Virus record (IMG/VR): IMGVR_UViG_3300002460_000067
Coordinates: 1-42,214 of that record
Length of the DNA stretch: 42,214 bases
Strand: one strand, 5' to 3'
Source of the DNA: a virus
In this document: positions 954-33,897 of the stretch, in pieces
Layout of the letters: every line of letters begins with the position of its first letter
How positions within the stretch are numbered: the first letter of the stretch is position 1
Translations under genes and position numbers: made by a program
The notes under the pieces: model-generated
The model's database searches: none
What the model saw: the letters and a program-made list of their open reading frames with translations, nothing else
What the model was told of the DNA's origin: nothing

Positions 954-1013
954 AGGTTGCCACTTCCGCCTGTCGCGACAAGCAGGCCTAAACCGACCAC
1001 TCGTGTAAATCAG

Positions 1014-1051
1014 GGTTAACGATGGTTAACCAACTCCATTCTATGGTTAAT
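1014..1051 (+). promoter_or_regulatory. Three direct GGTTAAY boxes (candidate regulator binding sites)
   Basis: GGTTAAC at 1014 and 1024, GGTTAAT at 1045 (spacings 10 and 21 bp). The same core recurs at 41483-41499 and inside the 41521-41565 inverted repeat. Confidence 0.45.
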
Positions 1052-1143
1052 CACCGCGATTTACCGTAAGCTTGGCCGTAAGGCGTGACGTTGTTTTGCG
1101 GTTCATTTTGAGTAAACTCGTGTATCATTTTGCATTTTGCCTA

Positions 1144-1172
1144 TTGACAACCGTGTATCATTATGATATAAT
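1144..1172 (+). promoter_or_regulatory. Consensus sigma70-type early promoter
   Basis: TTGACA (1144-1149), a 17-nt spacer, then TATAAT (1167-1172). A direct repeat CGTGTATCATT lies at about 1110 and inside the spacer (about 1152). Confidence 0.8.
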
Positions 1173-1221
1173 AGGTTCAGGCAAGGCAATCGGGACCGAG
1201 CCAACAGAAAGGAGCATAATC

Positions 1222-1434
1222 ATGAACACGATTACGAAAGAGAAACTTTCCCAGGCAGCCCAAGCTGCACTGGATAACTGGGACCATCAATTGATGGTCC
1301 CAGGGCAATCGACTGTCCTCCAGTCGATTGTAGATTGTCCGCACAATTTTGCGGACAATGACGGCAAAGTCAATATCCCAGTCGGATGGGATATCTGGAA
1401 ATATCTCGAAGAGGTCAGCAGCAGCCTGGCCTAG
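1222..1434 (+). CDS. hypothetical early protein (70 aa)
   Basis: ATG at 1222 is preceded by GAAAGGAG. It is the internal Met of track ORF 1072..1434, whose upstream part overlaps the promoter. Confidence 0.7.
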   Translation: MNTITKEKLSQAAQAALDNWDHQLMVPGQSTVLQSIVDCPHNFADNDGKVNIPVGWDIWKYLEEVSSSLA

Positions 1435-1436
1435 AC

Positions 1437-1514
1437 AATCCAGTCGTGCGGAGGTCACCCCCGACCTCACTACCGATAGTCGGTGGCGCCCCGTTGGGGT
1501 GGGCGTGGATAAAT
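1437..1514 (+). repeat. Structured intercistronic module, copy A (three hairpins)
   Basis: It starts AATCCAGTCGTGC and ends GGGGTGGGCGTGGATAAAT, like copies B and C. Hairpins lie at 1451-1468 (GAGGTC/GACCTC), 1470-1486 (CTACCG/CGGTGG) and 1489-1499 (CCCC/GGGG). Confidence 0.8.
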
Positions 1515-1537
1515 CACAGAATGAAAGGGACAGACAC

Positions 1538-1741
1538 ATGAGACACCGCGGTTTTGATAGTGATGACCGAGTAGAGCAAGTTGATTGGCTGCGCCAAGAG
1601 GCGCGAGACATTCTCAACTATGGCGATGGCACAGAAATCGAGCTAGTCGATTTCTGGAAAAGCCAACCGGTTGAGATCCCGGAATGGTTTGATCAGAATG
1701 ACGAAAAATTGTTACAGCAATTCGTTGCCGAATTGCTGTAA
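1538..1741 (+). CDS. hypothetical early protein (67 aa)
   Basis: ATG at 1538 follows GAAAGGGACAGACAC, in frame with track ORF 1349..1741. It begins ATGAGACA like the neighbouring genes. Confidence 0.7.
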   Translation: MRHRGFDSDDRVEQVDWLRQEARDILNYGDGTEIELVDFWKSQPVEIPEWFDQNDEKLLQQFVAELL

Positions 1742-1774
1742 CCACCACGCCCCACCCGCCCCCAGTGGCGCCTT

Positions 1775-1858
1775 AATCCAGTCGTGCAGCGCCACCCCCA
1801 GGCGCTCTACCGTCAAGTCGGTAGCCCCTCACATAGGTGGGGGTGGGCGTGGATAAAT
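1775..1858 (+). repeat. Structured intercistronic module, copy B
   Basis: Hairpins lie at 1788-1806 (AGCGCC/GGCGCT), 1807-1824 (CTACCG/CGGTAG) and 1826-1843. It is identical to copy C except for one A/G difference. Confidence 0.85.
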
Positions 1859-1871
1859 GAAAGGAAGAAAT

Positions 1872-2099
1872 ATGAGACGCATGGACAAAATTACATGCCT
1901 GGAGGACGCTAAAAATTATCTTCTGGCTACCGCGCCAGAACTAGACTCTCTTATCAAAAAAGCCGCCACGGGAGACGATGCAGCATATATGGCTCTCGTG
2001 GCGAGAATCGAACTTGACGAATCCCCGCCAACCCTGGCGGCCCTATGCTTCTTACCCTCGTATGGCCGCCACGGGAAGGATATAGAAAGGAACACATGA
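1872..2099 (+). CDS. hypothetical early protein (75 aa)
   Basis: ATG at 1872 follows GAAAGGAAGAAAT, in frame with track ORF 1857..2099. Confidence 0.65.
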   Translation: MRRMDKITCLEDAKNYLLATAPELDSLIKKAATGDDAAYMALVARIELDESPPTLAALCFLPSYGRHGKDIERNT

Positions 2100-2111
2100 G
2101 CAGCATCCAGT

Positions 2112-2195
2112 AATCCAGTCGTGCAGCGCCACCCCCAGGCGCTCTACCGTCAAGTCGGTGGCCCCTCACATAGGTGGGGGTGGGCGTGGATAAAT
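2112..2195 (+). repeat. Structured intercistronic module, copy C
   Basis: Same 84-nt sequence as copy B. The second hairpin closes with a G.U wobble (CGGTGG), which only works in the plus-strand RNA. Confidence 0.85.
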
Positions 2196-2210
2196 GAAAG
2201 GAACAGAATC

Positions 2211-2408
2211 ATGTTTGACGCAAAATCGCTCAGTCCTGAGGCCAAAGCAGCGTGTCGCGCGCTGAACTTTACCCCCCGGCACTGGGAGCCGGTGGACGAA
2301 TCACTTCCGGATGAAGTGGAGCACATTGTAGTCCGAATTTGGAATTCCAAGCGATTGGTCACATTGACCAATCGTCAATTGGAATTTGCAGCGACATATT
2401 TGCGTTGA
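2211..2408 (+). CDS. hypothetical early protein (65 aa)
   Basis: ATG at 2211 follows GAAAGGAACAGAATC, in frame with track ORF 2121..2408. Confidence 0.7.
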   Translation: MFDAKSLSPEAKAACRALNFTPRHWEPVDESLPDEVEHIVVRIWNSKRLVTLTNRQLEFAATYLR

Positions 2409-2484
2409 CGCGTCAGGAACCCCATAGCTAAAGCCAGGGGTATCTCGCATACAAACCAAATGAAAGGAACAGACACATGAGACA

Positions 2485-2625
2485 ATGGAATCGGTATTCG
2501 CAGGTGAGAGCCTGCCCCCCTGGACGTACTTCTACGTGAGCGACGATGCGAAAATCGTGGCCGCTGACGTGCCCAGTGATGGCTATCCGATGGATGAAGT
2601 AGAGTTCATTGGCCGCAAGTTCTAG
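2485..2625 (+). CDS. hypothetical early protein (46 aa, below the ORF-track cutoff)
   Basis: Hand translation gives MESVFAGESLPPWTYFYVSDDAKIVAADVPSDGYPMDEVEFIGRKF. A second ATG at 2477, in the position conserved in the other early genes, opens only a 20-codon frame. Confidence 0.45.
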   Translation: MESVFAGESLPPWTYFYVSDDAKIVAADVPSDGYPMDEVEFIGRKF

Positions 2626-2630
2626 CTTAG

Positions 2631-2666
2631 TAATTGCCGCCCGCACCCGGCCATAGGTGCGGAGAG
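2631..2666 (+). repeat. Second hairpin element family, copy 1
   Basis: taattgccgcccgcacccggccataggtgcggaga; stem CCGCACC (2641-2647) pairs with GGTGCGG (2656-2662). It matches 34 of 36 nt of 3051-3086. Confidence 0.8.
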
Positions 2667-2717
2667 CGCAATGCCCACCATCCCCCGTGGCCGTGGATAT
2701 AGAAAGGAAAGGCCGCC

Positions 2718-3053
2718 ATAAACATATCGCAGAAAATCAGGGAGTACTTCTCCCTACGACAGGAGGGAGAAGACCACGAATCCTCCCTATATGCAGTCGG
2801 TCTCCCCCCCGACTACATAATCACACCGAGTCCCACACCAAGTGGAGCGGAGATCCAAAAATATTTCCCCGACTACCAATGTAGTCAGGCAGACGCCAAG
2901 GGAATATTGAAGGATATTCGCAGGGATTTCAACGCCTACACAGCGCAGTGTGTAGGTGCGAGCCTGAACTGGCACAATGGCTCATGGTCCTGCCAGTTCA
3001 AAATTAAAGCGTATGAAGCGGTGGTCTCTCTTGGAGACCACCAGGATTTGTAA
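2718..3053 (+). CDS. hypothetical early protein with probable non-canonical ATA start (~111 aa)
   Basis: Hand translation shows an open frame from 2703 to TAA at 3051-3053 (117 codons), with protein-like sequence (..ISQKIREYFSLRQEGEDHESSLYAVGLPPDYII..). The first canonical in-frame start is TTG at 2907. ATA at 2718 lies 9 nt after GAAAGGA, matching the SD-start spacing of neighbouring genes. Confidence 0.5.
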   Translation: MNISQKIREYFSLRQEGEDHESSLYAVGLPPDYIITPSPTPSGAEIQKYFPDYQCSQADAKGILKDIRRDFNAYTAQCVGASLNWHNGSWSCQFKIKAYEAVVSLGDHQDL

Positions 3054-3086
3054 TTGCCGCCCGCACCCGGTTATAGGTGCGGAGAA
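3051..3086 (+). repeat. Second hairpin element family, copy 2
   Basis: taattgccgcccgcacccggttataggtgcggaga. It begins at the stop codon of the preceding ORF and precedes the SD of the next gene. Confidence 0.8.
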
Positions 3087-3093
3087 GGAAGTG

Positions 3094-3285
3094 ATGGGAG
3101 ACGCCGATTGGATTACGCGGCGTAGGCTCGAGGAGCTTCGCCGGCGCTACGATACGCCGGCGAAGCAAAACATCCGCAAAGCCGCCGAACGCCGTCGCCT
3201 CAAACAGGCGGCCGAACTGGCCGGCTTCGCCAGCATCGTCCAGCTAGCCAACGCCTTGTTGGCTGGCCAACAAGGCGTTCGCTAG
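3094..3285 (+). CDS. hypothetical basic protein (63 aa)
   Basis: ATG at 3094 follows GAAGGAAGTG. It is the internal Met of track ORF 2977..3285. The protein is Arg/Lys-rich and looks helical. Confidence 0.65.
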   Translation: MGDADWITRRRLEELRRRYDTPAKQNIRKAAERRRLKQAAELAGFASIVQLANALLAGQQGVR

Positions 3286-3286
3286 C
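3243..3286 (+). other. Long near-perfect hairpin at the 3' end of the 3094..3285 gene
   Basis: gctagccaacgccttgttggc / gccaacaaggcgttcgctagc gives 14 bp, one mismatch, then 6 bp. There is no adjacent U-tract. Confidence 0.6.
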
Positions 3287-3304
3287 GTTGGTGTCGCAGA
3301 GCTT

Positions 3305-3487
3305 TTGGCGCACACGGAAACCCTGGAAATTCTGGAAGTTCTGCCCCAGAAAAGCATGTTCCAAATTGCGGATATTCCGCAGACGTATCGTGTATCGCGC
3401 CACTTCACCGATGGCGCCAGGGTCAATACCACAAATGAGGTGGTACTGACAGAGCGCGCCATCGACAACATTATCAGTCTGGCCTAA
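3305..3487 (+). CDS. hypothetical protein (start uncertain: TTG 3305 or ATG 3356)
   Basis: Track ORF of 60 aa with a weak ribosome-binding site for either start. Confidence 0.3.
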   Translation: MAHTETLEILEVLPQKSMFQIADIPQTYRVSRHFTDGARVNTTNEVVLTERAIDNIISLA

Positions 3488-3491
3488 GCGC

Positions 3492-3522
3492 CCCACCCCC
3501 CCCGGTGGGCTATTCTGTTTTT
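3492..3522 (+). terminator. Weak candidate intrinsic terminator
   Basis: CCCACC (3492-3497) pairs with GGTGGG (3504-3509). A T-run at 3518-3522 lies 8 nt downstream, which is non-canonical spacing. Confidence 0.3.
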
Positions 3523-3557
3523 AAGGTACACATTAAGGTACACATTAAGGTACACAT
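3522..3557 (+). repeat. 12-bp perfect tandem repeat x3 (TAAGGTACACAT), candidate operator
   Basis: Units at 3522-3533, 3534-3545 and 3546-3557. The last unit supplies the A and T of the ATG at 3556. Confidence 0.9.
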
Positions 3558-3750
3558 GAAAAAATCAGACACTACACCCAAACCTTACCGCCTTCCATCG
3601 CGCACCGTCGCGCAGTTGCGTGAACTGCGCGACGGCGGATATTACACTACCGAGACCGCCGCCGTGGTCGAAGCCATCAACCTCCTGTGGCAGACACGGC
3701 TAGCGGAATCAACACAGCACCTGTCGCCCAGCCCCGACGACATGAGCTAG
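3556..3750 (+). CDS. ribbon-helix-helix (Arc/CopG-like) DNA-binding protein
   Basis: MKKSDTTPKPYRLPSRTVAQLRELRDGGYYTTETAAVVEAINLLW shows the beta-strand then helix-helix pattern typical of RHH proteins. It is the internal Met of track ORF 3505..3750. Confidence 0.65.
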   Translation: MKKSDTTPKPYRLPSRTVAQLRELRDGGYYTTETAAVVEAINLLWQTRLAESTQHLSPSPDDMS

Positions 3751-3752
3751 CA

Positions 3753-3780
3753 GAGAGCCACCTGGTCAGGGTGGCTCTCT
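3753..3780. terminator. Hairpin between convergent transcription units
   Basis: An 11-bp stem, agagagccacc (3753-3763) pairing with ggtggctctct (3770-3780), with a 6-nt loop. U-tracts are poor on both strands. Confidence 0.5.
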
Positions 3781-3956
3781 TACTTTGCCGCGCAGATAGA
3801 CACCTGCTGCTGCAACACACCTACCACATCAGTCATGCGCAGGTAGAGCAAGACAAAGAGCAACGCCTGGCCAACCATCATCATCACTACCATTGACATT
3901 CCTATTTGTATGCCGCTCCATTCTACATAGTTTGTTTGCTGTGTTGGCTCGTCCAT
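3780..3956 (-). CDS. small membrane protein (58 aa, below the ORF-track cutoff)
   Basis: Hand translation gives MDEPTQQTNYVEWSGIQIGMSMVVMMMVGQALLFVLLYLRMTDVVGVLQQQVSICAAK. GGAG lies 5 nt upstream of ATG 3956. There is one hydrophobic helix. Confidence 0.55.
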   Translation of the reverse strand: MDEPTQQTNYVEWSGIQIGMSMVVMMMVGQALLFVLLYLRMTDVVGVLQQQVSICAAK

Positions 3957-3966
3957 GATTACTCCG

Positions 3967-4353
3967 TCAATTTTGAGCGCGGCGCTCTAGCCATTCAGTG
4001 AACTGCTCTTCCACCCACTCCGGATCGTGGCGCTCTTTCCAGTATTCCCCGTAAACCTTTGTTGCCCAGCCGTCTAGCTGTGCTGCGTGCAATGCCCGCT
4101 GGCTCTTGACTGCTCCCCGTTCGGCGCGCTTCTTATCTTCTTTGATGTGACATTGGGTACAGACAACCACCAGATCCTCTGGCAATTCGTGGCGGAATCT
4201 TTCATAGGTTACATGATGAACTTCTAGTGTCCGCGACCACTTAGAGAATCCGCATATTGCACACCGATGCTGAGCGCGTTCCAGTGCGGCGGCTCTCTTC
4301 TGTTTCCACGTTGGGCTATTAATGTATTGCTGGTATTCTTCTTTTGAAAGCAT
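3967..4353 (-). CDS. HNH endonuclease
   Basis: CAICG...LEVHHVTY...VVVCTQCH matches the classic HNH/zinc-hook pattern. Confidence 0.85.
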   Translation of the reverse strand: MLSKEEYQQYINSPTWKQKRAAALERAQHRCAICGFSKWSRTLEVHHVTYERFRHELPEDLVVVCTQCHIKEDKKRAERGAVKSQRALHAAQLDGWATKVYGEYWKERHDPEWVEEQFTEWLERRAQN

Positions 4354-4366
4354 GGCGTTGCCTCCC

Positions 4367-6766
4367 CTATCTCTCAGTCTGTTTCATGTTGGGGCTGATG
4401 CCTACCCACACCCGCCCCTTGACGCCGCCGATACTGGTCTGCGCCCGCTCCAATCCGAACGTGCTCAATGCTTCGGCAATTTGTTTACCTGCCACCTTCA
4501 CATCGGGACTGAGCGCCACATTAAACGCGCGCAAGCGCGCGACGATCTCCGCTGTGAAGCATCGCAGATCCTCATTGCCGGGAATAATATCAAAGTACAT
4601 TTGCAGATACTGTTGCAAGGGATTCTCTATCTCGTGCCTTGCGTGCTCTCCCTTGAGCGCGTCCTTCTCTTCGGGTGACAGGTTGGGACTCACCCCACTG
4701 CGATACATGTGGACAATCTGCGCCCATAGTTGATCGACGGCTACCCTTTGTGCGTAACTGTGATCGATGGCGGTAATCTTCACCGGCAGAAAGCGTCGGT
4801 TGCCGGTCTGGTCGTCGAGGAATCCATACTCCGGGTTGACTGTACCCACCAGGTTACACAACGTTGGCTTGGTGATGTTCCCTTTACCCCACGGTTTGCG
4901 GTAGGTGTGCCACTCTTGCGTGATGAAACCCTTGAGCGCGTCTCTATCGGATCGACGTAGGCTGCTGCCTAATTCGCTAACTTCCCATATCCATTTCGTT
5001 ATCATGCTCCGCTTGTCCTCCACCTTATGCGGGTCAAGCGGACCCTCTTGGTGGTATTGGATTGACAAGCTACTGACTAGCCAGCGCGGGATGCTGCTCT
5101 TCCCTATCTCCTGGCCGCCCACGAACACGAGCACCGGCGTCTGATGCTTGAATGGATTCTCTTTGTCACCATCAAGCGCACGCGCTGCACACCCAATGAG
5201 CCATCGACTGATCAGCAGACGGTGCAATGAGTGCTGCGTACCATCGGCCATCGTAACCAATGGGCTATCACCGGTCAGATGATCCATGAAGGCGGTCAGG
5301 TGATCGCCCCCGTCCCACGTCAACCCGTTCAGATACTGTTGCACCGGGTGGTATGCGTTCGCCTTGGCGACCACATTAATTACATCATCGACATAGGATT
5401 TGCTGACGCCGCGGCTAATCATTTCCAGATATAGATCGCTGCGGTCCACATCATTGAGCGGTACGCCGTCCATCTCTGGTACATCCTCCAGTTGGTTCAG
5501 CCGGAAGGTATGCCCCAAGCTATTGAGCGCGGCCAACCATTCATCACGTTTAGTCAATACAGGTTTAGCGGATGGTTCCGGCGCCCAAGGTGGCATCATC
5601 GGCGCCGGCTTTACTGTCACGGTCGATGACATAGGTTTTCCCCTCGAGGGATTTTTCGGCTTGTCGATTGACGCCTTCGGCTGGCGGCGCTTGCTCTTCG
5701 GCTCATCTTCCCACAGCCCGACTGCTTTTTTCGCGTCCATATACGCCGCTTTCCAATCGCTGTTATGCACCAATATCTCAGCGCATTCATAGGCATCCCG
5801 CGCCTTGCCAAACAGCGCGTCACCCGTGTTGTGAGCAAAGGCAACCTCCGGTTTGTCGCCCTCGGGAGGTAGCACCGAGACGCTAGGCGTCTCCCCGCCT
5901 GGGCGCACCATCCGCACCAGGGATTTAGTTTTGTATTTAATTTTGTAGCCATGCTTCATCAACACATCGACAATACTATGTGCTGCGTTAAACAGACTGC
6001 GCACTTCACCGTTACCACCGCCGCCATTGCCGGGGGTCGGCGTGGGTTGATACTCGTGTTGTTCATCTGCTGCCATCGCTGCCCGGTAATCGTTGGCCAC
6101 CTCCGCGAGCATGTCATAGGAGTAGAGGCGATGAGGGTCGAACTCAATGGCGGTGACGAGGGGGTTGTTGCCCTTCCAACCGGGTTTGCAGTTGCGCGTA
6201 CCCAACACGCGATACACGCGGGTAATGTCAGACACCCCCTCGTCACCGCCATTGAGCTGCACCCAACTGTGCTGCACATCGATGACCTGTTGCCGGGTGC
6301 GGTCGTCAATGTATACCGTCTCGCGTAGATACCAATAGCAATGATAGCCGCCGCCGCTATCGACAATCAGCGTAGGCGCATAAGGCAGGTCACGGATATG
6401 CGCCATGGCCATGGCTTTATAGCTGGCCGGGTCCGCGTAAAAATTTTCACCGTTCTTACACCAATCTTTCCCGTCAAACTCGCAGTGCAGGACATTGATG
6501 CACTGGATGTATTCAATTTGTTTGGATATGTACCGTGGGTCGGTGTTCCCTGATTTGTTGTGTGGTGGTATCTGCGTGGAGGGATTGATTGATACATACT
6601 GTTCGGAGTTGATGTCGCGCGCCTGGCGGTAGGCGGTGATGCGCGCACTCTGATTGTTGTCAAACCAGGTGGACGTGGGTTGTGGCGTGGCGCACCAGAA
6701 ATGCGCGACGTTGCCGCCGCGGTGCAGGAACTCCAGCCAGGCTCCCGCCGATAGGAGTTGCGTCAT
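4367..6766 (-). CDS. bifunctional primase-polymerase / VirE(D5)-type helicase
   Basis: The N-terminal 'IVDSGGGYHCYWYL' is prim-pol-like. The C-terminal Walker A 'VGGQEIGKSS' and 'DDQTGNRRFLPV' are typical of VirE/D5-like P-loop domains. Confidence 0.85.
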   Translation of the reverse strand: MTQLLSAGAWLEFLHRGGNVAHFWCATPQPTSTWFDNNQSARITAYRQARDINSEQYVSINPSTQIPPHNKSGNTDPRYISKQIEYIQCINVLHCEFDGKDWCKNGENFYADPASYKAMAMAHIRDLPYAPTLIVDSGGGYHCYWYLRETVYIDDRTRQQVIDVQHSWVQLNGGDEGVSDITRVYRVLGTRNCKPGWKGNNPLVTAIEFDPHRLYSYDMLAEVANDYRAAMAADEQHEYQPTPTPGNGGGGNGEVRSLFNAAHSIVDVLMKHGYKIKYKTKSLVRMVRPGGETPSVSVLPPEGDKPEVAFAHNTGDALFGKARDAYECAEILVHNSDWKAAYMDAKKAVGLWEDEPKSKRRQPKASIDKPKNPSRGKPMSSTVTVKPAPMMPPWAPEPSAKPVLTKRDEWLAALNSLGHTFRLNQLEDVPEMDGVPLNDVDRSDLYLEMISRGVSKSYVDDVINVVAKANAYHPVQQYLNGLTWDGGDHLTAFMDHLTGDSPLVTMADGTQHSLHRLLISRWLIGCAARALDGDKENPFKHQTPVLVFVGGQEIGKSSIPRWLVSSLSIQYHQEGPLDPHKVEDKRSMITKWIWEVSELGSSLRRSDRDALKGFITQEWHTYRKPWGKGNITKPTLCNLVGTVNPEYGFLDDQTGNRRFLPVKITAIDHSYAQRVAVDQLWAQIVHMYRSGVSPNLSPEEKDALKGEHARHEIENPLQQYLQMYFDIIPGNEDLRCFTAEIVARLRAFNVALSPDVKVAGKQIAEALSTFGLERAQTSIGGVKGRVWVGISPNMKQTER

Positions 6767-25527: not shown

Positions 25528-28500
25528 CTATTGCGTTTTTATTCCACGTATCCACGACGGCGACCACTTGCGCGGCTCGCCTGGTCGCAGTTGTTTCCCG
25601 GCATTCAGCCAATCCAAATCAATCTGCGGGTTCTGGTAACTGGCCATGCGTGGCGGCTCTGCTAATCCGCTGGCCATGCTCTGGCCGTACACATTCGGCA
25701 TATTGACGATTGTTTTGCGCTCAGTCGGTTGGTAGCCGCCGTATCCACCATGAGCACCCCCGCCGCCTCCACTGCGCGGCGTGTATTCTTTCTTCTCTCT
25801 GCCATACCACCAATCCGCCCACGCGTTATACTGCGGGTTCTTCTCGTACCATAACCGGCGCTGGGTAGCGTCCCACCCGCGCTTGAACTGAGAAACAACA
25901 TCCCAAATGTTGTCGCCGAACATTTCTTTGGCCGTCGCATAGTCCGCGCCGAAGTTATATTTAAAATCGTCGCTGCCTTCCTTAGATTCGTCGTAGTTGG
26001 CGGGTCGGCCATTCAACCATGCGCCGAAGAGAAAGGCTTTGGGATTCTTGTCGTAGTATTGCGCTCTGGCCGCCTTGGCCTCTGGCGTGTCGGCATAGGC
26101 GGGTGTGAGCGCCCAGCGTCCCAGCGCGTCATCGCCAAACTCTTTGAGCGCTGGAGCCAATTCCTTGCTGTTGTAGGCGTACAGGTTGATCGCACGCATG
26201 ACGGGATTTTTAGTAAGGTACTCCTTACGGGCATCTCCCTTGGGAAGCGAGTAATACTCGTCCCACATGGCCGCCCCACCCGTATCAAAGAACTTTAGCA
26301 CGGCGCTGCGCCTGGCCGCCCACTCTGCGCGGGTCATCTCGCCCTTGACCCATTTGTCATTCATCGAAGCATAGTCGCGCGCTGTCTTTAGGTCTGCGCT
26401 GCCGGTTGTAGCTGCGGTGGGCTGCTCACCAGGCAAGGGCGAAAAGGTTGGCTGTACTGGCGCCCCCTTGCGCGTGCTGCCGGTCGCGCTCATCTGTGAC
26501 GGTATAGCCTCACCGCCCAGAATGCTCGCATTCAGTTCGTTAGCGCGCTGTGTCCAGGGATTAGATGCAGGCTGGTTCAGCACATTATCCCAATTGCGAT
26601 TGACCCACGGGCTGGGCTGTTGTTCCTCAGCCGGCGCATAGGGGTCGAAGGTTCCCAATGCCTGCCGTTCGCTACCCACGGGGCGCGGCCCGGTGTAGCC
26701 TTCCCCCGCGCCTGCGTTGGGGATAATCGCTTCATCCTCTGGCGTGGTCGTCGCGTTGGGATCATAACTCGCCTGGTCAACGTCTTGGAATTCTTTTTTC
26801 CACTCCTTGTAGCCGGTGTAGAGCATGTGCTCTTCCGGGTTGGCCTTCAGCCACGCTACAAAAGCGGCCTTGCCTTCGTTCGGTACGCTGTTGAGAATGT
26901 CGAAAATGTTGGGACCAAATATCTTGACTGCCTCGTCATAGGCGGCCCCGTAACTGTCTGTACCTCTGGCGTCACCAAAGCGCCGCCCTTTTAGCCAGAG
27001 TTTGGCCGCTTCTGCATTCGGATACTGATCGTTAAATGCCGCGGCCTCAGCGTAATAGGCGTTTAGTTGCGCCTCTGTTGCCCCATCGCCGGGATGCTTG
27101 GGCCCATTCTGCACCATCGCGAACGCGTCCGCCCCAAAGCGTTTGACAAATTCGTCATACTCCTGCGGATGGAAGCTGGCAAGCATTGCCTGATCGACAA
27201 GCGGGTTGGCTTGCTTGTATGCCTTGCGTTCTTCCCCAGTTTTGGGCAGGGCGTAATACTGAGATAACAACTCATTCCCTGCCGCCCCCATGCGCTCGTC
27301 TACGTTCTTCTCGTTCAGCTTATATTGCGCGTCCTCTACCTCTTCAACAAAACTTTGCCGGTCGCTCCAGGCTTTTTCCACATCCCCGGCATATCTGTTC
27401 TCATACCCGCGCAATAGCTCACTGGCGTACATATCCTTGACCATCTTACGCGCGGCATCCTTCCAGGGATCAGGGTACGTGTCATCCTGATTCAGCAACT
27501 GCGTGAACTGGCGGTCGTAGTAGTCGAGTCTGGCGGTGTCCCATTTGGCTTTGTCCAGGTAATAGGCTTTCTTGTCCTCTGGACTGGCATCCTTCCCGGG
27601 GTAGACAGGCTTCCCCGCCGGCTTGTGACTGAGAACCGACTGCACAAATCCCGCGGCATGTTCAACGGGATTCATGTAGGTAGTGTTGAGATGTTTGGTT
27701 TCCTTCTCCGGCAATGATGGATACTTCGCCTTGAGTTCCTCTACCCTATCCCAGAAAGGTGATTTGAAATCATTTACCTCTTTGCTCGTGGCGTCCGGAT
27801 TGTCAATTAAATATTTAGCAACCGCCTGCGTCATCTCATTCATAATGACGCCGTGCGCGTTATAGTATTCGTTCTGTACGGCCTTCTCCCCTGGGCGCAA
27901 CCGTTTGCGATCATCACCCTGCGGATAGAGAACGCTGTAATTGAAGGTGGCGTCAAAGGCTTCGGGCTGCATTCCGGTGTAAGCGTTGACGGCTTCTCTG
28001 CTGCCGTAGGGGTTGGTTACCTCATTGTAACCTAACTTTGGGCGCGTCTCTTTCATCTCGCGCATCTGCTGTTCTTCGGGCGACAGGTTATAGCCCGGTA
28101 TGCCGGTGAGAAATGCCATTGCGCGGTTCTGAAATCTATCCCACCCTGCCGCCGATGCGCCCTGTTGCCAGGCCCCGGCTGCCCCGGCTGATTGCTCCGG
28201 TAGCGGTTGACTGCCCGTCTGCTGCTGATAGCCTACGTCACTGGCCCACATTGCATCCTGCGGGTTGACCTCCCCGCGCAGTCCGGCAAGCGCCACCTGT
28301 TTCCCGGCGCGCCCATAGTCGTATTCGTCGCCATAGGATAGCGCGCCCTGCGGTCCCATCTGACCGGTCATGCCCTGCCGCGCGTAGCCCGCAAGCTTGT
28401 ACAGGGGCAGGACATCCCCCAGTTGGAATTCGTCAGTTCTCCTCTTGCCGCCCGGTAATGGGTTGCTCTGGTCGAGCGCGTAGTTCATCGCATAGCTGGC

Positions 28501-31500
28501 GAGCGGATACATGGCGGGGGTGTATTTCTGGACGGTCATCTTCCAGCGCTCAAACTCACTGCGCGCGTCATCGGGATTGACGAAATCGCTGCCCAGATAC
28601 ATCGCGATGGGTAGCGCAAATGTTAATGGGTTGAGTAGGCGATCCGGTCCGAAGGGTAGCGGATTCTGCACCGTGCCGCGCAGATGTTCCGGTACGTTGT
28701 TTTGCTGATTCTCCATCTCAATCGCCCGTTGCGACTCATACCACATATTGACGATACCGGGTTTCTGTACGGCGCGCGCCAGCCAGTTTTTAGCGCTGTG
28801 ACTCCAAAAATAATGAAACGGAAAAAGTATAGCCAGCCACACATCCAGATTGCGCTTGTCGTGATAGTTGAGCATGGCGAAGTTGCCCATCTGCTCGCCG
28901 GTGCGCACAGCCCCCGCCAAGATGTTATCGTACTGCGGGAGCATCTCTTGTAGCGCATCGAGCACGCGCAGTTGCTGCGCCGGCGTCATCGTGTTCGGCT
29001 TGCCCGCCAACAGTTCCGGCAAGCGTTGGATGATTCGTTTTTCCGCGTCGCCCAAGGTTCTGATCGTGTGCTGCGCGACCTCGCCCATTTCGGGCGCTTT
29101 CTTGCCTAGTAGCTCGGTGAGGTTGCTATTGACGCCGCTCACTAGTTTGTATAGGTCGGTTTGTTTGGCGCTCTCGGTCAGGCCATAGGGATTCCAGCCA
29201 CTGGCGTTACTCGCCAGTTTATAGGGCGTTTCGTGTAAAACTTGCAATTGGTCAATCAATTTTCCGAACGCCTGCCCCAGCCCTACACCCATCTCTGTTT
29301 CCATCGGCGTAGAAACAAAGGGCGTTTTTAGCCTAACATAATCCTGGACTAGCGCCTTCACGCTGGCCTGGTCAGTAATCTTTACTCCGGCAATGGTTAG
29401 CCCGCTGAATTTGTTTAGCTGCGCCGCGGTCAGCGGATTTTTCCCCGCCGCCACTTTCGCCGCAAGTTCATCAATCGGAGGCAACTGGTATTCATAGGCA
29501 TAATCTTGCCAAGCCCTACGAATGTCGCCGGAGGTAAACCCCTGTGTACTCTTGGCCAGGGGTGGCTTCGTGGGTGTAGCCGCGGGCAAAGTTTTTACTT
29601 CCACGTCTGGTCCTGTGGCTGTATATTTTGCGTAATCGGTCGGCTGGTCGCCTGCGGCCTGTGTGAGTTTATAGGCGTCCTGTTGCGCCAGCGCTTCCGC
29701 CTCTTGTGCCGCCCACTTCGCCGCACTGTCGGCGTCAAGCTCCTTGATCAGCGTATCGACAATGTTCGTGTTCTCCCCGATGACCCGGTAAAAGTCCTGC
29801 AATACTTTCAGCGGCACTTCGGGCAGCGCGGCGGCGAGGGTTCCCGCCTTGCGCTGCTTGGCCAGTTCCACCGGGTCGGCGAATCGTTCAAGCGCGCCGG
29901 TCGCCACATTGCGCGCTTGCCAGTAGCCATCCTGTAATTTCCCGACGAGTTGAAACTCGCCGCCCGCAAAATCATCGGTCCACTTGAGCGCGCCCTTCGC
30001 CATATCCGCCACGCCACTAGCCACAATTAACCGCTTGACGACATTGTTGTGGACAACGGCATTGTCAAAGAACTCAGCCCACACTTGATTACGCAGTTTG
30101 TAATAGGCGTCCGTTTGCTTGGGTAGCATACTGGCGCGTTTGTCGGCCAGGAATGCCGCGGCCTTTGCGCCTAGCTCCTCCATCTTGCGTAGTCCATCGG
30201 CCATCAGGTCAAGACTGTTTTGTGACGGATAGCGTCTGAACGCACTGAAAAGCTCTACAGCGCTCTTATCGACATACTTGCGGTTAGCATCCAGTGCCTT
30301 AGCAAACACGTCGCCTGCGGCTTGTGGTGAGCCTACGCCGAGTCCTGCGGTGCGCGCCGCCTGAATCTCTGCCTCATCGTAGGATGCATAGCGCTTGATG
30401 ACATCGAACCAGTCATACGCGCCCTCTACAGGTTGACCCTGCTCGAGTTTAATCAGATTCTGCCGCGCTGAGTCTACGGCCCGCTGGAAGAAGTCAGTGA
30501 ATCCGCTATAGATTTGCTTGGTTCCTTCAAACTTGCGCGCCCAGGCGTCACCCGTGTTGGCTGCAATGGCCGCCTTGCTCAACTGGTCTATCTGCGCCCT
30601 GGCTGTAGTGCGCCAGTCGTACCATTTGGCGAGCAGGTCCATGGCCACGTTCAATGACTGCGGGTCGGTCGCTCCGACGAGATCGCCGCGCAGGGTTGTC
30701 CACAATGCCGACTCTGTATCGGCGATTTGCTTCATGAGCGTCTGCGCTTCCTGGCGCGCCACGTCACCCGGCATCCCCCCGCGCTTGGCGGCTTCGGTCA
30801 TGCTGTCTACTACGTCCGCGCCGTCCTGCATCGACTCGAACTCGGTCCACACGCCACGCCCGGGTTGCGGTGGCGCTCTGTTGAGTAGCTCGCCGGCCTG
30901 CTTAAACTCTTCGCCAAATATCTGGCGCACTTTGGCCGCCGCTTCATCTAACTGATTCGGTAGACTCTCGCTCAACAGCGTGTTGAGTTTGGCCCACCCT
31001 TCCGCCGATACCAGTTCATCAGGTACGCCCAACTCTTTGAGTGAGAACGGTATCACCTGCCCGCTCGTCAACTTGCGCAGGGTGGCCGCCATCTGCTGTT
31101 TGTTGCCGTTAATGCCCACATCCGCCACGGTGGCGCTCAAACTCTTGGCCAAGTTGGGATCAATGCCCAGGCCAGTCAAGGTCTGCTCAAAGCCCTTCGC
31201 CGCGTCTGTCCAGTTGGAGGTCAGGTAGCGCTTGAAGGGTACATAAGTAGCGCGTAATGCAAAGTTTTGCTCGCCGAATGAGATGACGCCGAGGATGTCA
31301 GTATTCCCAAAGGGAATCTTGTACAGCCGCTTCATCAGATTGCTATAGCCCTGGGCTATAGGGTTGCCGTTAAATAGGCGCTCGGCCCAGTGCAGTCCGC
31401 CCATCACTTCCTCTGCTGATTGCCCAAGGGCTGACCCTGCCGCCTCTGCTGTACGCGTGGTCGGCGCCATACCTCCAAATTTGGTCATCAAATCGTTCAT

Positions 31501-33897
31501 GATTGCCTTGGTCGGGAGCAAGGTCATGGTGTTGTCGGCGATCAGCGTAGCCGCCGCGTTGGTAGCATTTTTTATCCAGTAGCCTGGACTCATGCCCAGG
31601 TACATATCAGACAAAATTGCTTTCTGTATACCCCATGTGGCAGCCAGTGGATTCTGTCCCCCTGGCCCCGCCGCGGCAATAGCCTTCTTCAATTGTTTGG
31701 CTTGAAGTTGTGCGTCATAGGGCAACATCTCCGCGGACTGTTTTAATACTTTGCCCGCTTTGTCTACATATTCAATGACCGACGTTCCCGTCGCGGTGCG
31801 CGTCACGCGGAAGTTGACCGCGCCCGCGGGTAGATTGTCCAGCGTCTTGAGTCCGAACAATTCGCGGCTGGCCTTATAGAGTACGTCGTTGAACTCGGCA
31901 AAAAATTCCTGCGGGGCAAATGTAGCCGGGTCGCCGGTCAAGCTGCGCATATTCAGCAATGCCTCACGCGCCTTGACGATCACCGGATATTGTTTTAGTA
32001 GTTCGGAGTTGGCGACAACGCCCGGCCCCCACTTGGTAATCTCGGTTGAGCCAGGCAGTACAACCCCCTCCACCAACTGGCGCGGGTCATTCGTCCACAG
32101 GTCGAGCACGGCGCGGGCGCTCGTCTTGTCGGTGACATCTGACATAATGTTGGCCGCGGCGCGCCAGAGGATGTCCGTCGCCATGTGCGCGTTCGTGTCC
32201 GCAGTCCTGGCGAACGGGTTGACCGCGCTCCACCACCCGCCCACGTTGCCGCCCAGGGCGGTCTTGGTCGCGTCGTCGATTACACCGTCCAGCGCGTTCA
32301 ATGCCTGTGCTGGCGTCATGTTCATAAGCGCCGCCGCCTTTGCCGCCTGTAATGCCTCACGCGACGGCGCCAATGAGATGTTCAGCGGGTCTAAGATCAC
32401 CCCGCCCAAAAATTCCGCCCAAGCGTTGCCGTGTTCGTCAATGATTTCCGTCTTGGTTTTATTTTTAAGTTCGTTGGCCTGCGCGCCGTACTGCGCGGCT
32501 TCTAAATATTTGTTGTTTACTGCGTCAAAAGTTTCTTTGGTCATCGGACGATTAAGGTAAAATTTATAAGCGTCCTCGGTCAAAGGCCTCGTCGAATCGG
32601 TAAGCCCTTGCGCGGCCGCCAATGCCTGCTGCGCTTTCTGCTCAAGTTCGGCAACCATATCATCTTGGTTGAGAATGGCGTCAATCGCGCTGCGTGTTTC
32701 CTCTGGCCCGGCGATCAGTTTGACCATCGCCGCGTTCGCTTCAGTACGCAGTTCAGGCGGTAGGGAATCAAAGGCCATGCGCACGGCTTGACTATTGCGC
32801 AGATTGTCCCAGAAGAGTTTTGCCGCAGTATCGCCTAACGCGTTGGGCGCGTTGGGCGTATCGTCAAATAAATCCTTCACGCGGTTGGGATTGCGCGGGT
32901 TCAGCGTGCGATTAATGGCCTCGCCCGCGGCGCTCGCCAACTGCCCCACGCTCACATCCTCACCACCCAGAAACGCACCTGTGCCGGGAATCTGCGTGGT
33001 TTCAATCGCCTTGCCGCCCAGGGAAAGCGCGGTCAATACGTTCCGCGCGTTGTCCCCCAAGGCGTCTATTCCCCGATTGCTGCCTTCGGCCAAACTATCC
33101 TTGGCTTGCTGTTCCAGGTAATCATACCCAGGCGTCGCGCCAAACGCGGCCTTCAGCGCCCAGTCTACTGGCCCCACTTCCTTGGCATAATCAGCGCTGA
33201 GTCCGGCGATCTTCTGGGCGCCTTGCCAGCCGCCCAACTGCTGCCACGCATATTTGGCCGCATCGATAACGGTGGGCGCATAGCGCGTCACGCCCCAGGC
33301 GTCTTCCCGCGGCGGCGCGTATGGGTCATAGGGGGCGGTAGGGCTGCCCATCGTGGGCGCTTGCTGTTGCTGCCCGGTCATCGGGTTGACCCCGGTGTCT
33401 GGCCGCGTCAACGCATAATCAACGGTCGCCGGTTTTACATCGTACAGGTTGGGTCTCACCTGTGGTTGTCCAGTGTTAGCGGAGGAGAGCGGGTTATACT
33501 CCGGTTGTTGCGGTGGACCATTACGCCAAGCGTCCATAGCATTGAGCCACTTGTCTTCTGGTGGAGCGGATGGAGCAATGGGCGGACCCACTGACGGGAC
33601 CATGGGGCGCGTCTCGCCGGGGCGTAGTGGACCCTGCACGGGCACATTGATAGGGCGCAAAACATCAGAGACGGAAACACGCTGCGCGGGGGCAGTCGCA
33701 TGTTCGGCCTGCCGCCATTGCGCCATTGCCGTCTCTAGCGGATCGGCGCGCTGAACGGAAGCCTGCGGCGCGGTCGTCGGCGCCACGGCCTGCCGCCACT
33801 TCGCCGCCTGGCGGGCGCGCTCCGCTTCAAATTCGGCCTGCGCCGCGGCTTCATCTTCGCCGTTCCACCAATCGGTAATCCCATTCCACCAAGACAT
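25528..33897 (-). CDS. giant virion-module protein, 2,789 aa (function unknown; possible internal or ejection protein)
   Basis: A single uninterrupted ORF with GAGGGA 7 nt upstream of the ATG. It lies between the portal and scaffold genes. I recognise no catalytic motif. Confidence 0.85.
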   Translation of the reverse strand: MSWWNGITDWWNGEDEAAAQAEFEAERARQAAKWRQAVAPTTAPQASVQRADPLETAMAQWRQAEHATAPAQRVSVSDVLRPINVPVQGPLRPGETRPMVPSVGPPIAPSAPPEDKWLNAMDAWRNGPPQQPEYNPLSSANTGQPQVRPNLYDVKPATVDYALTRPDTGVNPMTGQQQQAPTMGSPTAPYDPYAPPREDAWGVTRYAPTVIDAAKYAWQQLGGWQGAQKIAGLSADYAKEVGPVDWALKAAFGATPGYDYLEQQAKDSLAEGSNRGIDALGDNARNVLTALSLGGKAIETTQIPGTGAFLGGEDVSVGQLASAAGEAINRTLNPRNPNRVKDLFDDTPNAPNALGDTAAKLFWDNLRNSQAVRMAFDSLPPELRTEANAAMVKLIAGPEETRSAIDAILNQDDMVAELEQKAQQALAAAQGLTDSTRPLTEDAYKFYLNRPMTKETFDAVNNKYLEAAQYGAQANELKNKTKTEIIDEHGNAWAEFLGGVILDPLNISLAPSREALQAAKAAALMNMTPAQALNALDGVIDDATKTALGGNVGGWWSAVNPFARTADTNAHMATDILWRAAANIMSDVTDKTSARAVLDLWTNDPRQLVEGVVLPGSTEITKWGPGVVANSELLKQYPVIVKAREALLNMRSLTGDPATFAPQEFFAEFNDVLYKASRELFGLKTLDNLPAGAVNFRVTRTATGTSVIEYVDKAGKVLKQSAEMLPYDAQLQAKQLKKAIAAAGPGGQNPLAATWGIQKAILSDMYLGMSPGYWIKNATNAAATLIADNTMTLLPTKAIMNDLMTKFGGMAPTTRTAEAAGSALGQSAEEVMGGLHWAERLFNGNPIAQGYSNLMKRLYKIPFGNTDILGVISFGEQNFALRATYVPFKRYLTSNWTDAAKGFEQTLTGLGIDPNLAKSLSATVADVGINGNKQQMAATLRKLTSGQVIPFSLKELGVPDELVSAEGWAKLNTLLSESLPNQLDEAAAKVRQIFGEEFKQAGELLNRAPPQPGRGVWTEFESMQDGADVVDSMTEAAKRGGMPGDVARQEAQTLMKQIADTESALWTTLRGDLVGATDPQSLNVAMDLLAKWYDWRTTARAQIDQLSKAAIAANTGDAWARKFEGTKQIYSGFTDFFQRAVDSARQNLIKLEQGQPVEGAYDWFDVIKRYASYDEAEIQAARTAGLGVGSPQAAGDVFAKALDANRKYVDKSAVELFSAFRRYPSQNSLDLMADGLRKMEELGAKAAAFLADKRASMLPKQTDAYYKLRNQVWAEFFDNAVVHNNVVKRLIVASGVADMAKGALKWTDDFAGGEFQLVGKLQDGYWQARNVATGALERFADPVELAKQRKAGTLAAALPEVPLKVLQDFYRVIGENTNIVDTLIKELDADSAAKWAAQEAEALAQQDAYKLTQAAGDQPTDYAKYTATGPDVEVKTLPAATPTKPPLAKSTQGFTSGDIRRAWQDYAYEYQLPPIDELAAKVAAGKNPLTAAQLNKFSGLTIAGVKITDQASVKALVQDYVRLKTPFVSTPMETEMGVGLGQAFGKLIDQLQVLHETPYKLASNASGWNPYGLTESAKQTDLYKLVSGVNSNLTELLGKKAPEMGEVAQHTIRTLGDAEKRIIQRLPELLAGKPNTMTPAQQLRVLDALQEMLPQYDNILAGAVRTGEQMGNFAMLNYHDKRNLDVWLAILFPFHYFWSHSAKNWLARAVQKPGIVNMWYESQRAIEMENQQNNVPEHLRGTVQNPLPFGPDRLLNPLTFALPIAMYLGSDFVNPDDARSEFERWKMTVQKYTPAMYPLASYAMNYALDQSNPLPGGKRRTDEFQLGDVLPLYKLAGYARQGMTGQMGPQGALSYGDEYDYGRAGKQVALAGLRGEVNPQDAMWASDVGYQQQTGSQPLPEQSAGAAGAWQQGASAAGWDRFQNRAMAFLTGIPGYNLSPEEQQMREMKETRPKLGYNEVTNPYGSREAVNAYTGMQPEAFDATFNYSVLYPQGDDRKRLRPGEKAVQNEYYNAHGVIMNEMTQAVAKYLIDNPDATSKEVNDFKSPFWDRVEELKAKYPSLPEKETKHLNTTYMNPVEHAAGFVQSVLSHKPAGKPVYPGKDASPEDKKAYYLDKAKWDTARLDYYDRQFTQLLNQDDTYPDPWKDAARKMVKDMYASELLRGYENRYAGDVEKAWSDRQSFVEEVEDAQYKLNEKNVDERMGAAGNELLSQYYALPKTGEERKAYKQANPLVDQAMLASFHPQEYDEFVKRFGADAFAMVQNGPKHPGDGATEAQLNAYYAEAAAFNDQYPNAEAAKLWLKGRRFGDARGTDSYGAAYDEAVKIFGPNIFDILNSVPNEGKAAFVAWLKANPEEHMLYTGYKEWKKEFQDVDQASYDPNATTTPEDEAIIPNAGAGEGYTGPRPVGSERQALGTFDPYAPAEEQQPSPWVNRNWDNVLNQPASNPWTQRANELNASILGGEAIPSQMSATGSTRKGAPVQPTFSPLPGEQPTAATTGSADLKTARDYASMNDKWVKGEMTRAEWAARRSAVLKFFDTGGAAMWDEYYSLPKGDARKEYLTKNPVMRAINLYAYNSKELAPALKEFGDDALGRWALTPAYADTPEAKAARAQYYDKNPKAFLFGAWLNGRPANYDESKEGSDDFKYNFGADYATAKEMFGDNIWDVVSQFKRGWDATQRRLWYEKNPQYNAWADWWYGREKKEYTPRSGGGGGAHGGYGGYQPTERKTIVNMPNVYGQSMASGLAEPPRMASYQNPQIDLDWLNAGKQLRPGEPRKWSPSWIRGIKTQ

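Follow-up and report, generated by a model that had tools for sequence, protein, structure and literature searches.

The window analysed here, the 42,214 nucleotides of IMG/VR record IMGVR_UViG_3300002460_000067, looks like the near-complete genome of an uncultured tailed phage, with genes coding for a SU10-type major capsid protein, a large terminase and a VapE-type primase-helicase. Its early region (Table 1) opens with a strong sigma-70 promoter followed by nine small ORFs on the plus strand, each with a GAAAGGAA-type SD. This promoter presumably drives the early operon, in which three copies of a structured module are lodged between genes. The small proteins coded by the operon belong to no Pfam or PHROG family.

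The promoter is also kept in two sibling phages of IMG/VR, L001 and L122, which share with the window the primase and the last gene of the operon, coding a protein of 64 amino acids. In the interval from the promoter to this 64-aa gene the two siblings carry other cassettes, without the module; a homologue of ORF 1 is present in L122. The terminator-like hairpin that precedes the 64-aa gene in the window is the boundary of this variable cassette region and has a counterpart in both module-free siblings.

Table 1. Features of the early region of the window
Feature	Position	Strand	Remarks
Sigma-70 promoter	1144-1172	+	TTGACA-17-TATAAT with TG; 12/12 consensus matches
Early ORF 1	1222-1434	+	70 aa; 5 nt from start of UAG stop to start of module A
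Module A	1437-1514	+	78 nt; MFE fold; covariance models R1 and R2 give 91 and 89 bits
P1 of module A	1438-1445/1502-1510		G1505 bulged
P2 of module A	1451-1456/1463-1468		loop ACCCCC
P3 of module A	1470-1475/1481-1486		hairpin
P4 of module A	1487-1492/1496-1501		hairpin
SD and ORF 2	1523-1741	+	SD GAAAGGGAC; start 1538; 67 aa; 3' of module A
Module B	1775-1858	+	84 nt; A-type ends, P2 swapped with full compensation, longer P4; 78 bits
SD and ORF 3	1859-2099	+	SD GAAAGGAAG; start 1872; 75 aa; 3' of module B
Module C	2112-2195	+	84 nt; one base off module B (U.G for U-A in P3); 79 bits
SD and ORF 4	2196-2408	+	SD GAAAGGAAC; start 2211; 65 aa; 3' of module C
Terminator-like hairpin	3492-3509	+	T-rich tail; first one 3' of the modules, before the conserved 64-aa gene

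Several other features were recorded in the window. In the regions 1-100 and 550-960, a long polypyrimidine (CT) run that forms the left end is followed by many TTCACCATCA-like repeats, which flank a divergent region 5' of the early promoter. A mini-ORF of five codons (MSSIQ, 2096-2113) with its own SD copy GGATATAGAAAGGAA, repeated at 2695-2709, is contained in the segment 2085-2113; it shares sequence with the end of ORF 3, and its UAA runs into the first bases of module C. The segment 2700-3053 holds an ORF of ~111 codons that is open from position 2703 and has an SD at 2702-2711, with no ATG, GTG or TTG until 2907; its start would be an ATA at 2718 or 2724, or else the sequence carries an error. 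Right after the terminator-like hairpin, TTAAGGTACACA is repeated three times in tandem (3521-3560) across the SD and the start of the 64-aa gene. An ORF of 2789 aa on the minus strand (25528-33897) has no Pfam or PHROG match, and a gene coding a 2776-aa protein occupies the matching position in the related phage L157.

Sequence and fold of the three modules

Modules B and C differ in one of 93 aligned bases. Module A has AATCCAGTCGTGC and GGGGTGGGCGTGGATAAAT in common with them and shares otherwise only parts of hairpin 2. Each of the two end motifs is found exactly three times in the 42 kb window, and a covariance model run over the whole window with filters off detects only the same three copies, with 78-89 bits on the plus strand and at most 14 bits on the minus strand. 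Number and positions of the modules thus agree with the preliminary description of this DNA.

The conserved ends of each module pair mutually, AUCCA with UGGAU, and 3-4 further pairs extend this helix. The MFE structure is therefore a four-way junction formed by the closing helix P1 and the hairpins P2, P3 and P4. The preliminary description had drawn three consecutive hairpins: all three are present, but they are not loose, since the paired ends close the junction around them. The base-pair exchanges it had reported hold for hairpin 1, with the compensated swap of GAGGUC/GACCUC for AGCGCC/GGCGCU, and for hairpin 2, which tolerates a U.G pair in place of U-A between modules B and C. Hairpin 3 varies in length, as had been noted, and in the homologues it also covaries.

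The fold has an energy of -36 to -38 kcal/mol. On the plus strand its z score ranges from -2.0 to -2.9, while the minus strand gives +0.08 for module A, -2.0 for module B and -1.7 for module C. Individual helices have 5-8 pairs and none exceeds 8; coaxial stacks (P1 on P4, P2 on P3) could reach 12-17 pairs. No promoter-like or terminator-like site lies within any module, and the only strong promoter is the upstream one at 1144-1172, so that the repeats are not duplicated promoters.

Two additional pairings were considered and rejected. With the raw MAFFT alignment as input, RNAalifold aligned hairpins 1 and 3 wrongly and suggested a pairing of loop 1 with the 3' strand; this was set aside because P4, which covaries, requires the bases concerned. 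For a pseudoknot of the CCCC loop with the GGG of the 3' strand there is no covariation, the loop is missing from the copy in L168, and unrelated hairpins of these phages often have C-rich loops. Loops of CCCC or longer recur in this phage group, being found in the hairpin 3492-3509, in hammerhead stem III and in module P2, with L122 5391-5410 and 5659-5664 among the sites.

A sequence located 5' of module B (1742-1773), CCACGCCCCACCC, is complementary to the module 3' strand GGGUGGGCGUGG and displaces P1 as the closing helix in a longer fold. A similar C-rich element precedes other spacers of L122 and L128. An 8-nt complementarity of the module 3' core to helix 24 of 16S rRNA was also seen, which we take to be due to chance.

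Homologues, covariation and the conserved core

Twenty-two distinct variants of the module were found in metagenomic and viral contigs. Their carriers belong to at least four phage groups whose captured regions have little gene content in common. Of the matches to a pattern built on the two ends, 12 metagenome loci, 8 IMG/VR loci and one MAG contig are real, and the others are due to chance; L139, L141, L161 and L163-L167 are such chance matches (13-21 bits). A copy with an altered outer P1 (L170 4460-4534) was recovered by the model and one with a U8->G substitution (L308) by a later scan. A third sibling group, reached through homologues of the 64-aa protein, has one module (L128 4242-4319) whose ends are identical to those of the window copies and whose hairpins 2 and 3 differ from theirs through compensated changes. 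Found by this protein route, the L128 copy is independent of any DNA pattern.

Other searches gave no further members. The first two-part pattern, ending in GTGGATAAAT, was too strict and had zero matches, and the 14-mer GGGCGTGGATAAAT had only chance matches in IMG/VR. Neither the early region nor single modules had a match among GenBank phages. The relatives reached through the primase (L153-L160) have no module, and a full-text search of the literature for the core sequences returned unrelated primers only. The element at 2626-2706 of the window shares ...CGTGGATATAGAAAGGAA with the module 3' end, though the covariance model shows that it is not a diverged copy. Contigs starting exactly at a module are explained by assembly breaks at repeats and were not counted as evidence for RNA ends.

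The covariation figures rest on 21 of the 22 variants, aligned to the model. Standard pairs occupy 95.9% of the 518 cells, and changes on both sides are present in 11 of the 25 pairs (44 cells). The observed covariation was attained by none of 500 shuffles, and when partners were slid by 1-3 columns 33-49% of the cells were paired. The first 14 sequences alone give the same picture. Selection on RNA structure rather than mere duplication, proposed initially from the three window copies, is thus borne out in a larger alignment. All six pairs of P2 have double changes, as do three of the six of P3, and P4 covaries with a length of ~4 to 8 pairs and unrelated loops. At several positions of P2 and P3 U.G alternates with C-G and U-A; this alternation and the strand asymmetry of the model scores show that the fold belongs to the sense strand, i.e. 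to the mRNA.

In contrast to the freely varying stems of P2-P4, the closing helix and junction contain ~23 nt that hardly vary (AAUCCAGUCGUGC ... GGGCGUGGAU). The strands concerned are P1 with the adjoining A-AUCCAGUCGUGC and GGGCGUGGAU. Most homologues were gathered with a pattern that fixes the ends, so that end invariance is only partly independent evidence. The L128 copy and the three window copies agree exactly at the core bases despite their diverged hairpins. A scan in which AUCCA/UGGAU (P1a) was left free gave only chance matches beyond the known members, and a scan with the six junction bases and GGGC left free gave one new member, the one with the single U8->G substitution. These scans and the copy found by the protein route indicate that the core is constrained in sequence, not by pairing alone. 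No adenine occurs in the invariant core, which can be drawn as a nearly continuous, G/C-rich prolongation of P1 interrupted by small bulges; of the possible registers, the one that leaves G7 and U8 unpaired is favoured by the U8->G variant. The CCCC run of the P2 loop, absent only in L168, is conserved as well, as is an ..AG on the 3' side of the P3 loop.

The position of the module relative to genes is equally constant. Wherever the flanks of a copy can be read, a co-directional ORF terminates just 5' of the module. The upstream stop begins 1-36 nt before it, and in 7 of the 13 scored copies a UAA overlaps AAUCC. The next start codon lies ~17-27 nt past GGAU behind an exposed purine-rich SD of the type found throughout the window operon, except in L174 where no SD follows. 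SD and start codon are never within the folded structure. The order stop codon, module, SD and start that had been reported for the window thus holds for its three copies. Early operons have 1-3 copies each; in the window three of about nine early genes carry one. The flanking proteins are mostly mutually unrelated ORFans, and the few conserved neighbours are joined to different module subtypes and different partners. A protein 79% identical to the ORF 2 product is coded 3' of a module in L170. With neighbours mostly unrelated and partners reshuffled, the element belongs to the spacer and not to a gene family.

Known RNA elements and the hammerhead slot

Rfam 15 (4227 models, among them hammerhead I/II/III, twister, twister-sister, pistol, hatchet, HDV and hairpin ribozymes) was searched with the whole window and with its segments 1000-4000 and 1400-2230, at the gathering threshold or E<=10, and none of its models matches the module. 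The absence of a recognisable family in the preliminary description is consistent with this result. On the related loci Rfam gave nothing useful apart from a HEARO RNA in the module-bearing contig L150 (5132-5353, 146 bits); it is followed by a 444-aa ORF (5307-6641), and both lie ~2 kb upstream of the L150 early promoter.

The module-free sibling L122 has in the spacer before its third early gene, right after a UAA, every core nucleotide of a type II hammerhead (5646-5700, plus strand; GGAC GAA ACCGGA-ACCCCC-UCCGGU C AGGUGG-UAAGUG-CCACCU CUGAUGA GUCC). This is the MFE fold, with a z score of -3.0, and 3000 shuffles of the locus produced no chance match. Rfam is silent on it at both the gathering and the E<=10 thresholds, and Rfam negatives consequently carry limited weight here. 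A hammerhead pattern scanner finds the L122 copy and detects nothing in the window or in any module. At least 150 type II hammerheads with a GGAC/GUCC stem II were found in 121 IMG/VR loci (L176-L295), with up to four in one locus. In 134 of 150 cases they lie between co-directional ORFs, with median distances of 1 nt from the stop and 23 nt to the next start. This syntax of stop, element and SD is that of the module. The 934 kb of hammerhead-bearing loci contain no module, and the association between module and hammerhead is one of equivalent position, not of neighbourhood.

Tandem hammerheads cleave the polycistronic RNAs of prophages (PMC3088659). Like the module, the hammerheads described by Perreault et al. 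2011 (PMC3088659) combine variable stems with an invariant core and lie between small unrelated genes. They have one to four copies per operon, each beginning 0-1 nt past the stop and ending ~20 nt short of the next start, and the module syntax is identical. The two motifs differ in structure: the hammerhead is a three-helix RNA with CUGANGA, GAAA and a UH cleavage site, while the module has neither core string and a four-helix junction. In our view tandem intercistronic phage hammerheads, which the preliminary description did not name, are its closest precedent. Unrelated ribozyme classes share genomic niches, and twister and later classes were discovered that way (PMC6765202). A motif that occupies the slot used by hammerheads in other phages is therefore a good candidate signal for the cutting or processing of RNA.

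Among other self-cleaving RNAs, the four-way junction form of twister-sister (PMC5660989) also has a closing helix with an internal loop and a junction with three hairpins. In both RNAs conservation concentrates on two loops, the internal one and that of the middle hairpin, and the middle loop of the module, G-U-N-R-A-G-W-C, resembles the SL4 sequence G-U-G-C-A-A-G-U-C. Twister-sister has the order P1-L1-P2, with an L1 of GCAAG / GCUCAU that is cleaved at C-A and into which the SL4 loop docks (PMC5660989). The module L1 is GUCGUGC / GGGCG, without a C-A step in its 3' strand, and matches no Rfam model at E<=10, so that identity with twister-sister was rejected. The hatchet ribozyme has a P1 hairpin, a 3-nt linker and P2-L2-P3-L3-P4 in a single arm, with cleavage at its 5' end (PMC6561176); the module is not of this kind, being a four-way junction with hairpins that lack internal loops.

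A four-way junction raises also the question of a tRNA or tRNA-like substrate of RNase P. The tRNA cloverleaf has an acceptor/T stack of 7+5 bp with fixed length, a T-loop and a D-loop. In the module the would-be T-arm is P4, with 4-8 pairs and a variable loop without T-loop; the P3 loop has 3-6 nt. ARAGORN is silent, and such an identity is unlikely.

The T7 RNase III sites are double-stranded hairpins of about two turns, usually with an internal loop, and are cleaved by RNase III. Like the module, those of the T7 early region are repeated, sequence-related intercistronic RNAs with compensatory changes; they lie in an early polycistronic transcript made by the host RNA polymerase and define mRNA ends. 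T7 sites are single long irregular hairpins, whereas the helices of the module have at most 8 pairs (coaxial stacks could give 12-17). Unlike T7 sites, the module has a P4 of variable length and a core conserved across unrelated phages. We class it as a new RNA family that would function most like the intercistronic phage hammerheads or the T7 RNase III sites.

Another suggested precedent, the put antitermination RNAs of HK022, fits poorly. These are likewise cis-acting structured RNAs of early transcripts whose copies are related by compensatory changes, but put consists of two stem-loops in one copy per operon near the promoter, while the module has a closing helix with three hairpins in up to three copies, always between stop and SD. 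It is not counted as a put RNA, from which it differs in architecture, copy number and placement. It is very unlikely that the nascent module binds RNA polymerase and causes readthrough of downstream terminators as HK022 putL/putR do: the setting would suit such a role, with an early transcript, a strong promoter upstream, the terminator-like hairpin 3492-3509 downstream and a multi-hairpin RNA with conserved unpaired bases, but each of the 1-3 copies per operon is locked to the slot between stop and SD, the fold is a four-way junction, and L001 and L122 keep both promoter and terminator-like hairpin with no module.

The PeSL cassettes of T4-type phages (PMC2839356) are, like the module, repeated intergenic elements of hypervariable early regions rich in ORFans, and both probably favour modular shuffling. 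A PeSL consists of a sigma-70 promoter and a terminator stem-loop; the module has neither and shows covariation at the RNA level. A DNA-level role as a recombination boundary, in which the repeats would shuffle small gene cassettes as PeSL elements do, could account for the hypervariability of the region between promoter and 64-aa gene among siblings, for the differing module subtypes and downstream genes found behind related upstream genes, and for the presence of the module in mosaic, otherwise dissimilar phages. It is nevertheless highly improbable, as compensatory changes and strand-specific G.U pairs reveal selection on a folded single strand and the modules are devoid of promoter or terminator. 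Cassette shuffling is more likely a by-product of the repeats.

Proposed function

The sense-strand fold, the free stems around a fixed core, the placement, the 1-3 copies per operon, the spread among mosaic phages and the ribozyme-equivalent position together require that a fold in the mRNA be specifically recognised at the borders of cistrons. The module is best explained as a structured RNA of the sense strand that acts in cis within the early polycistronic mRNA. The transcript would be cut at or beside the module, by the RNA itself or by an RNase recognising the invariant P1/junction, and the cut would separate the small early cistrons. What remains would be a compact nuclease-resistant fold, either at the 5' end so created, immediately ahead of the exposed A-rich SD, or at the new 3' end of the upstream message. 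We give an even chance to the module being such an intercistronic processing and insulating element. Its structure, strand, conservation pattern, placement and distribution are shown by the data, while cleavage, its site and its agent are inferred. Within this reading RNase-dependent cleavage is a tentative possibility, and self-cleavage is doubtful.

Self-cleavage would make the module a new class of small ribozyme with a four-way junction and a core of G, U and C only, which would cut early mRNAs between cistrons and be functionally interchangeable with the type II hammerheads found in this slot in related phages; this we consider rather unlikely. The adenine-free G/C-rich helix of the core counts against the processing reading, as it looks more like a protein-recognition helix than a typical ribozyme core. 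Also counted against processing were the lack of co-occurrence of module and hammerhead, the L168 copy without CCCC loop and the L174 copy without SD.

In a rival reading the module is the operator of an RNA-binding protein. A phage or host protein would sit on the invariant P1/junction upstream of the SD, without obligatory cleavage, and co-regulate the translation or decay of a subset of early cistrons. The T4 RegA and coat-protein operators are models for such a role. An adenine-free G/C-rich helix with small bulges that adjoins the ribosome-binding site would suit a protein, strict sequence conservation within a helix is typical of protein sites, and only some early genes carry the module (3 of about 9 in the window). 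Yet the module-bearing phage groups have no protein in common in the parts captured, the structure never includes the SD or the start codon, and the equivalence with the hammerhead slot is left unexplained; an operator is, on balance, an unlikely solution.

The stability of the fold (-36 to -38 kcal/mol) and its location directly 5' of an unstructured A-rich SD region might suggest a passive structural element instead, which would be a barrier to exonucleases or Rho and would keep the next ribosome-binding site free of pairing with adjacent coding sequence, with no specific recognition. Simpler hairpins do fill this slot at other places in the operon (2627-2665 and 3047-3085). This reading leaves unexplained the ~23 near-invariant nt found across phage groups in which the hairpin stems are fully replaced, and we regard it as improbable.

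The module bears on why self-cleaving ribozymes sit between phage genes, as a structurally unrelated motif holds the same slot in close relatives. If self-cleaving, the module would add a ribozyme class and show that the slot selects cleavage itself and not a particular fold. If recognised by an RNase or another protein, it would provide a natural comparison for the benefits of the hammerheads, namely cistron separation, protection of RNA ends and insulation of ribosome-binding sites. Either way it would be a compact natural intercistronic insulator with clear design rules, akin to the ribozyme-built parts of synthetic biology.

A second intercistronic repeat family, GUAAUUGCCGCCCGCACC-N8-GGUGCGGAGA, for which Rfam has no match, is found in the window at 2627-2665 and 3047-3085 and in L128 at ~4655-4690. 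Its members form a single hairpin of 7-8 bp that extends from the stop codon into the next SD.
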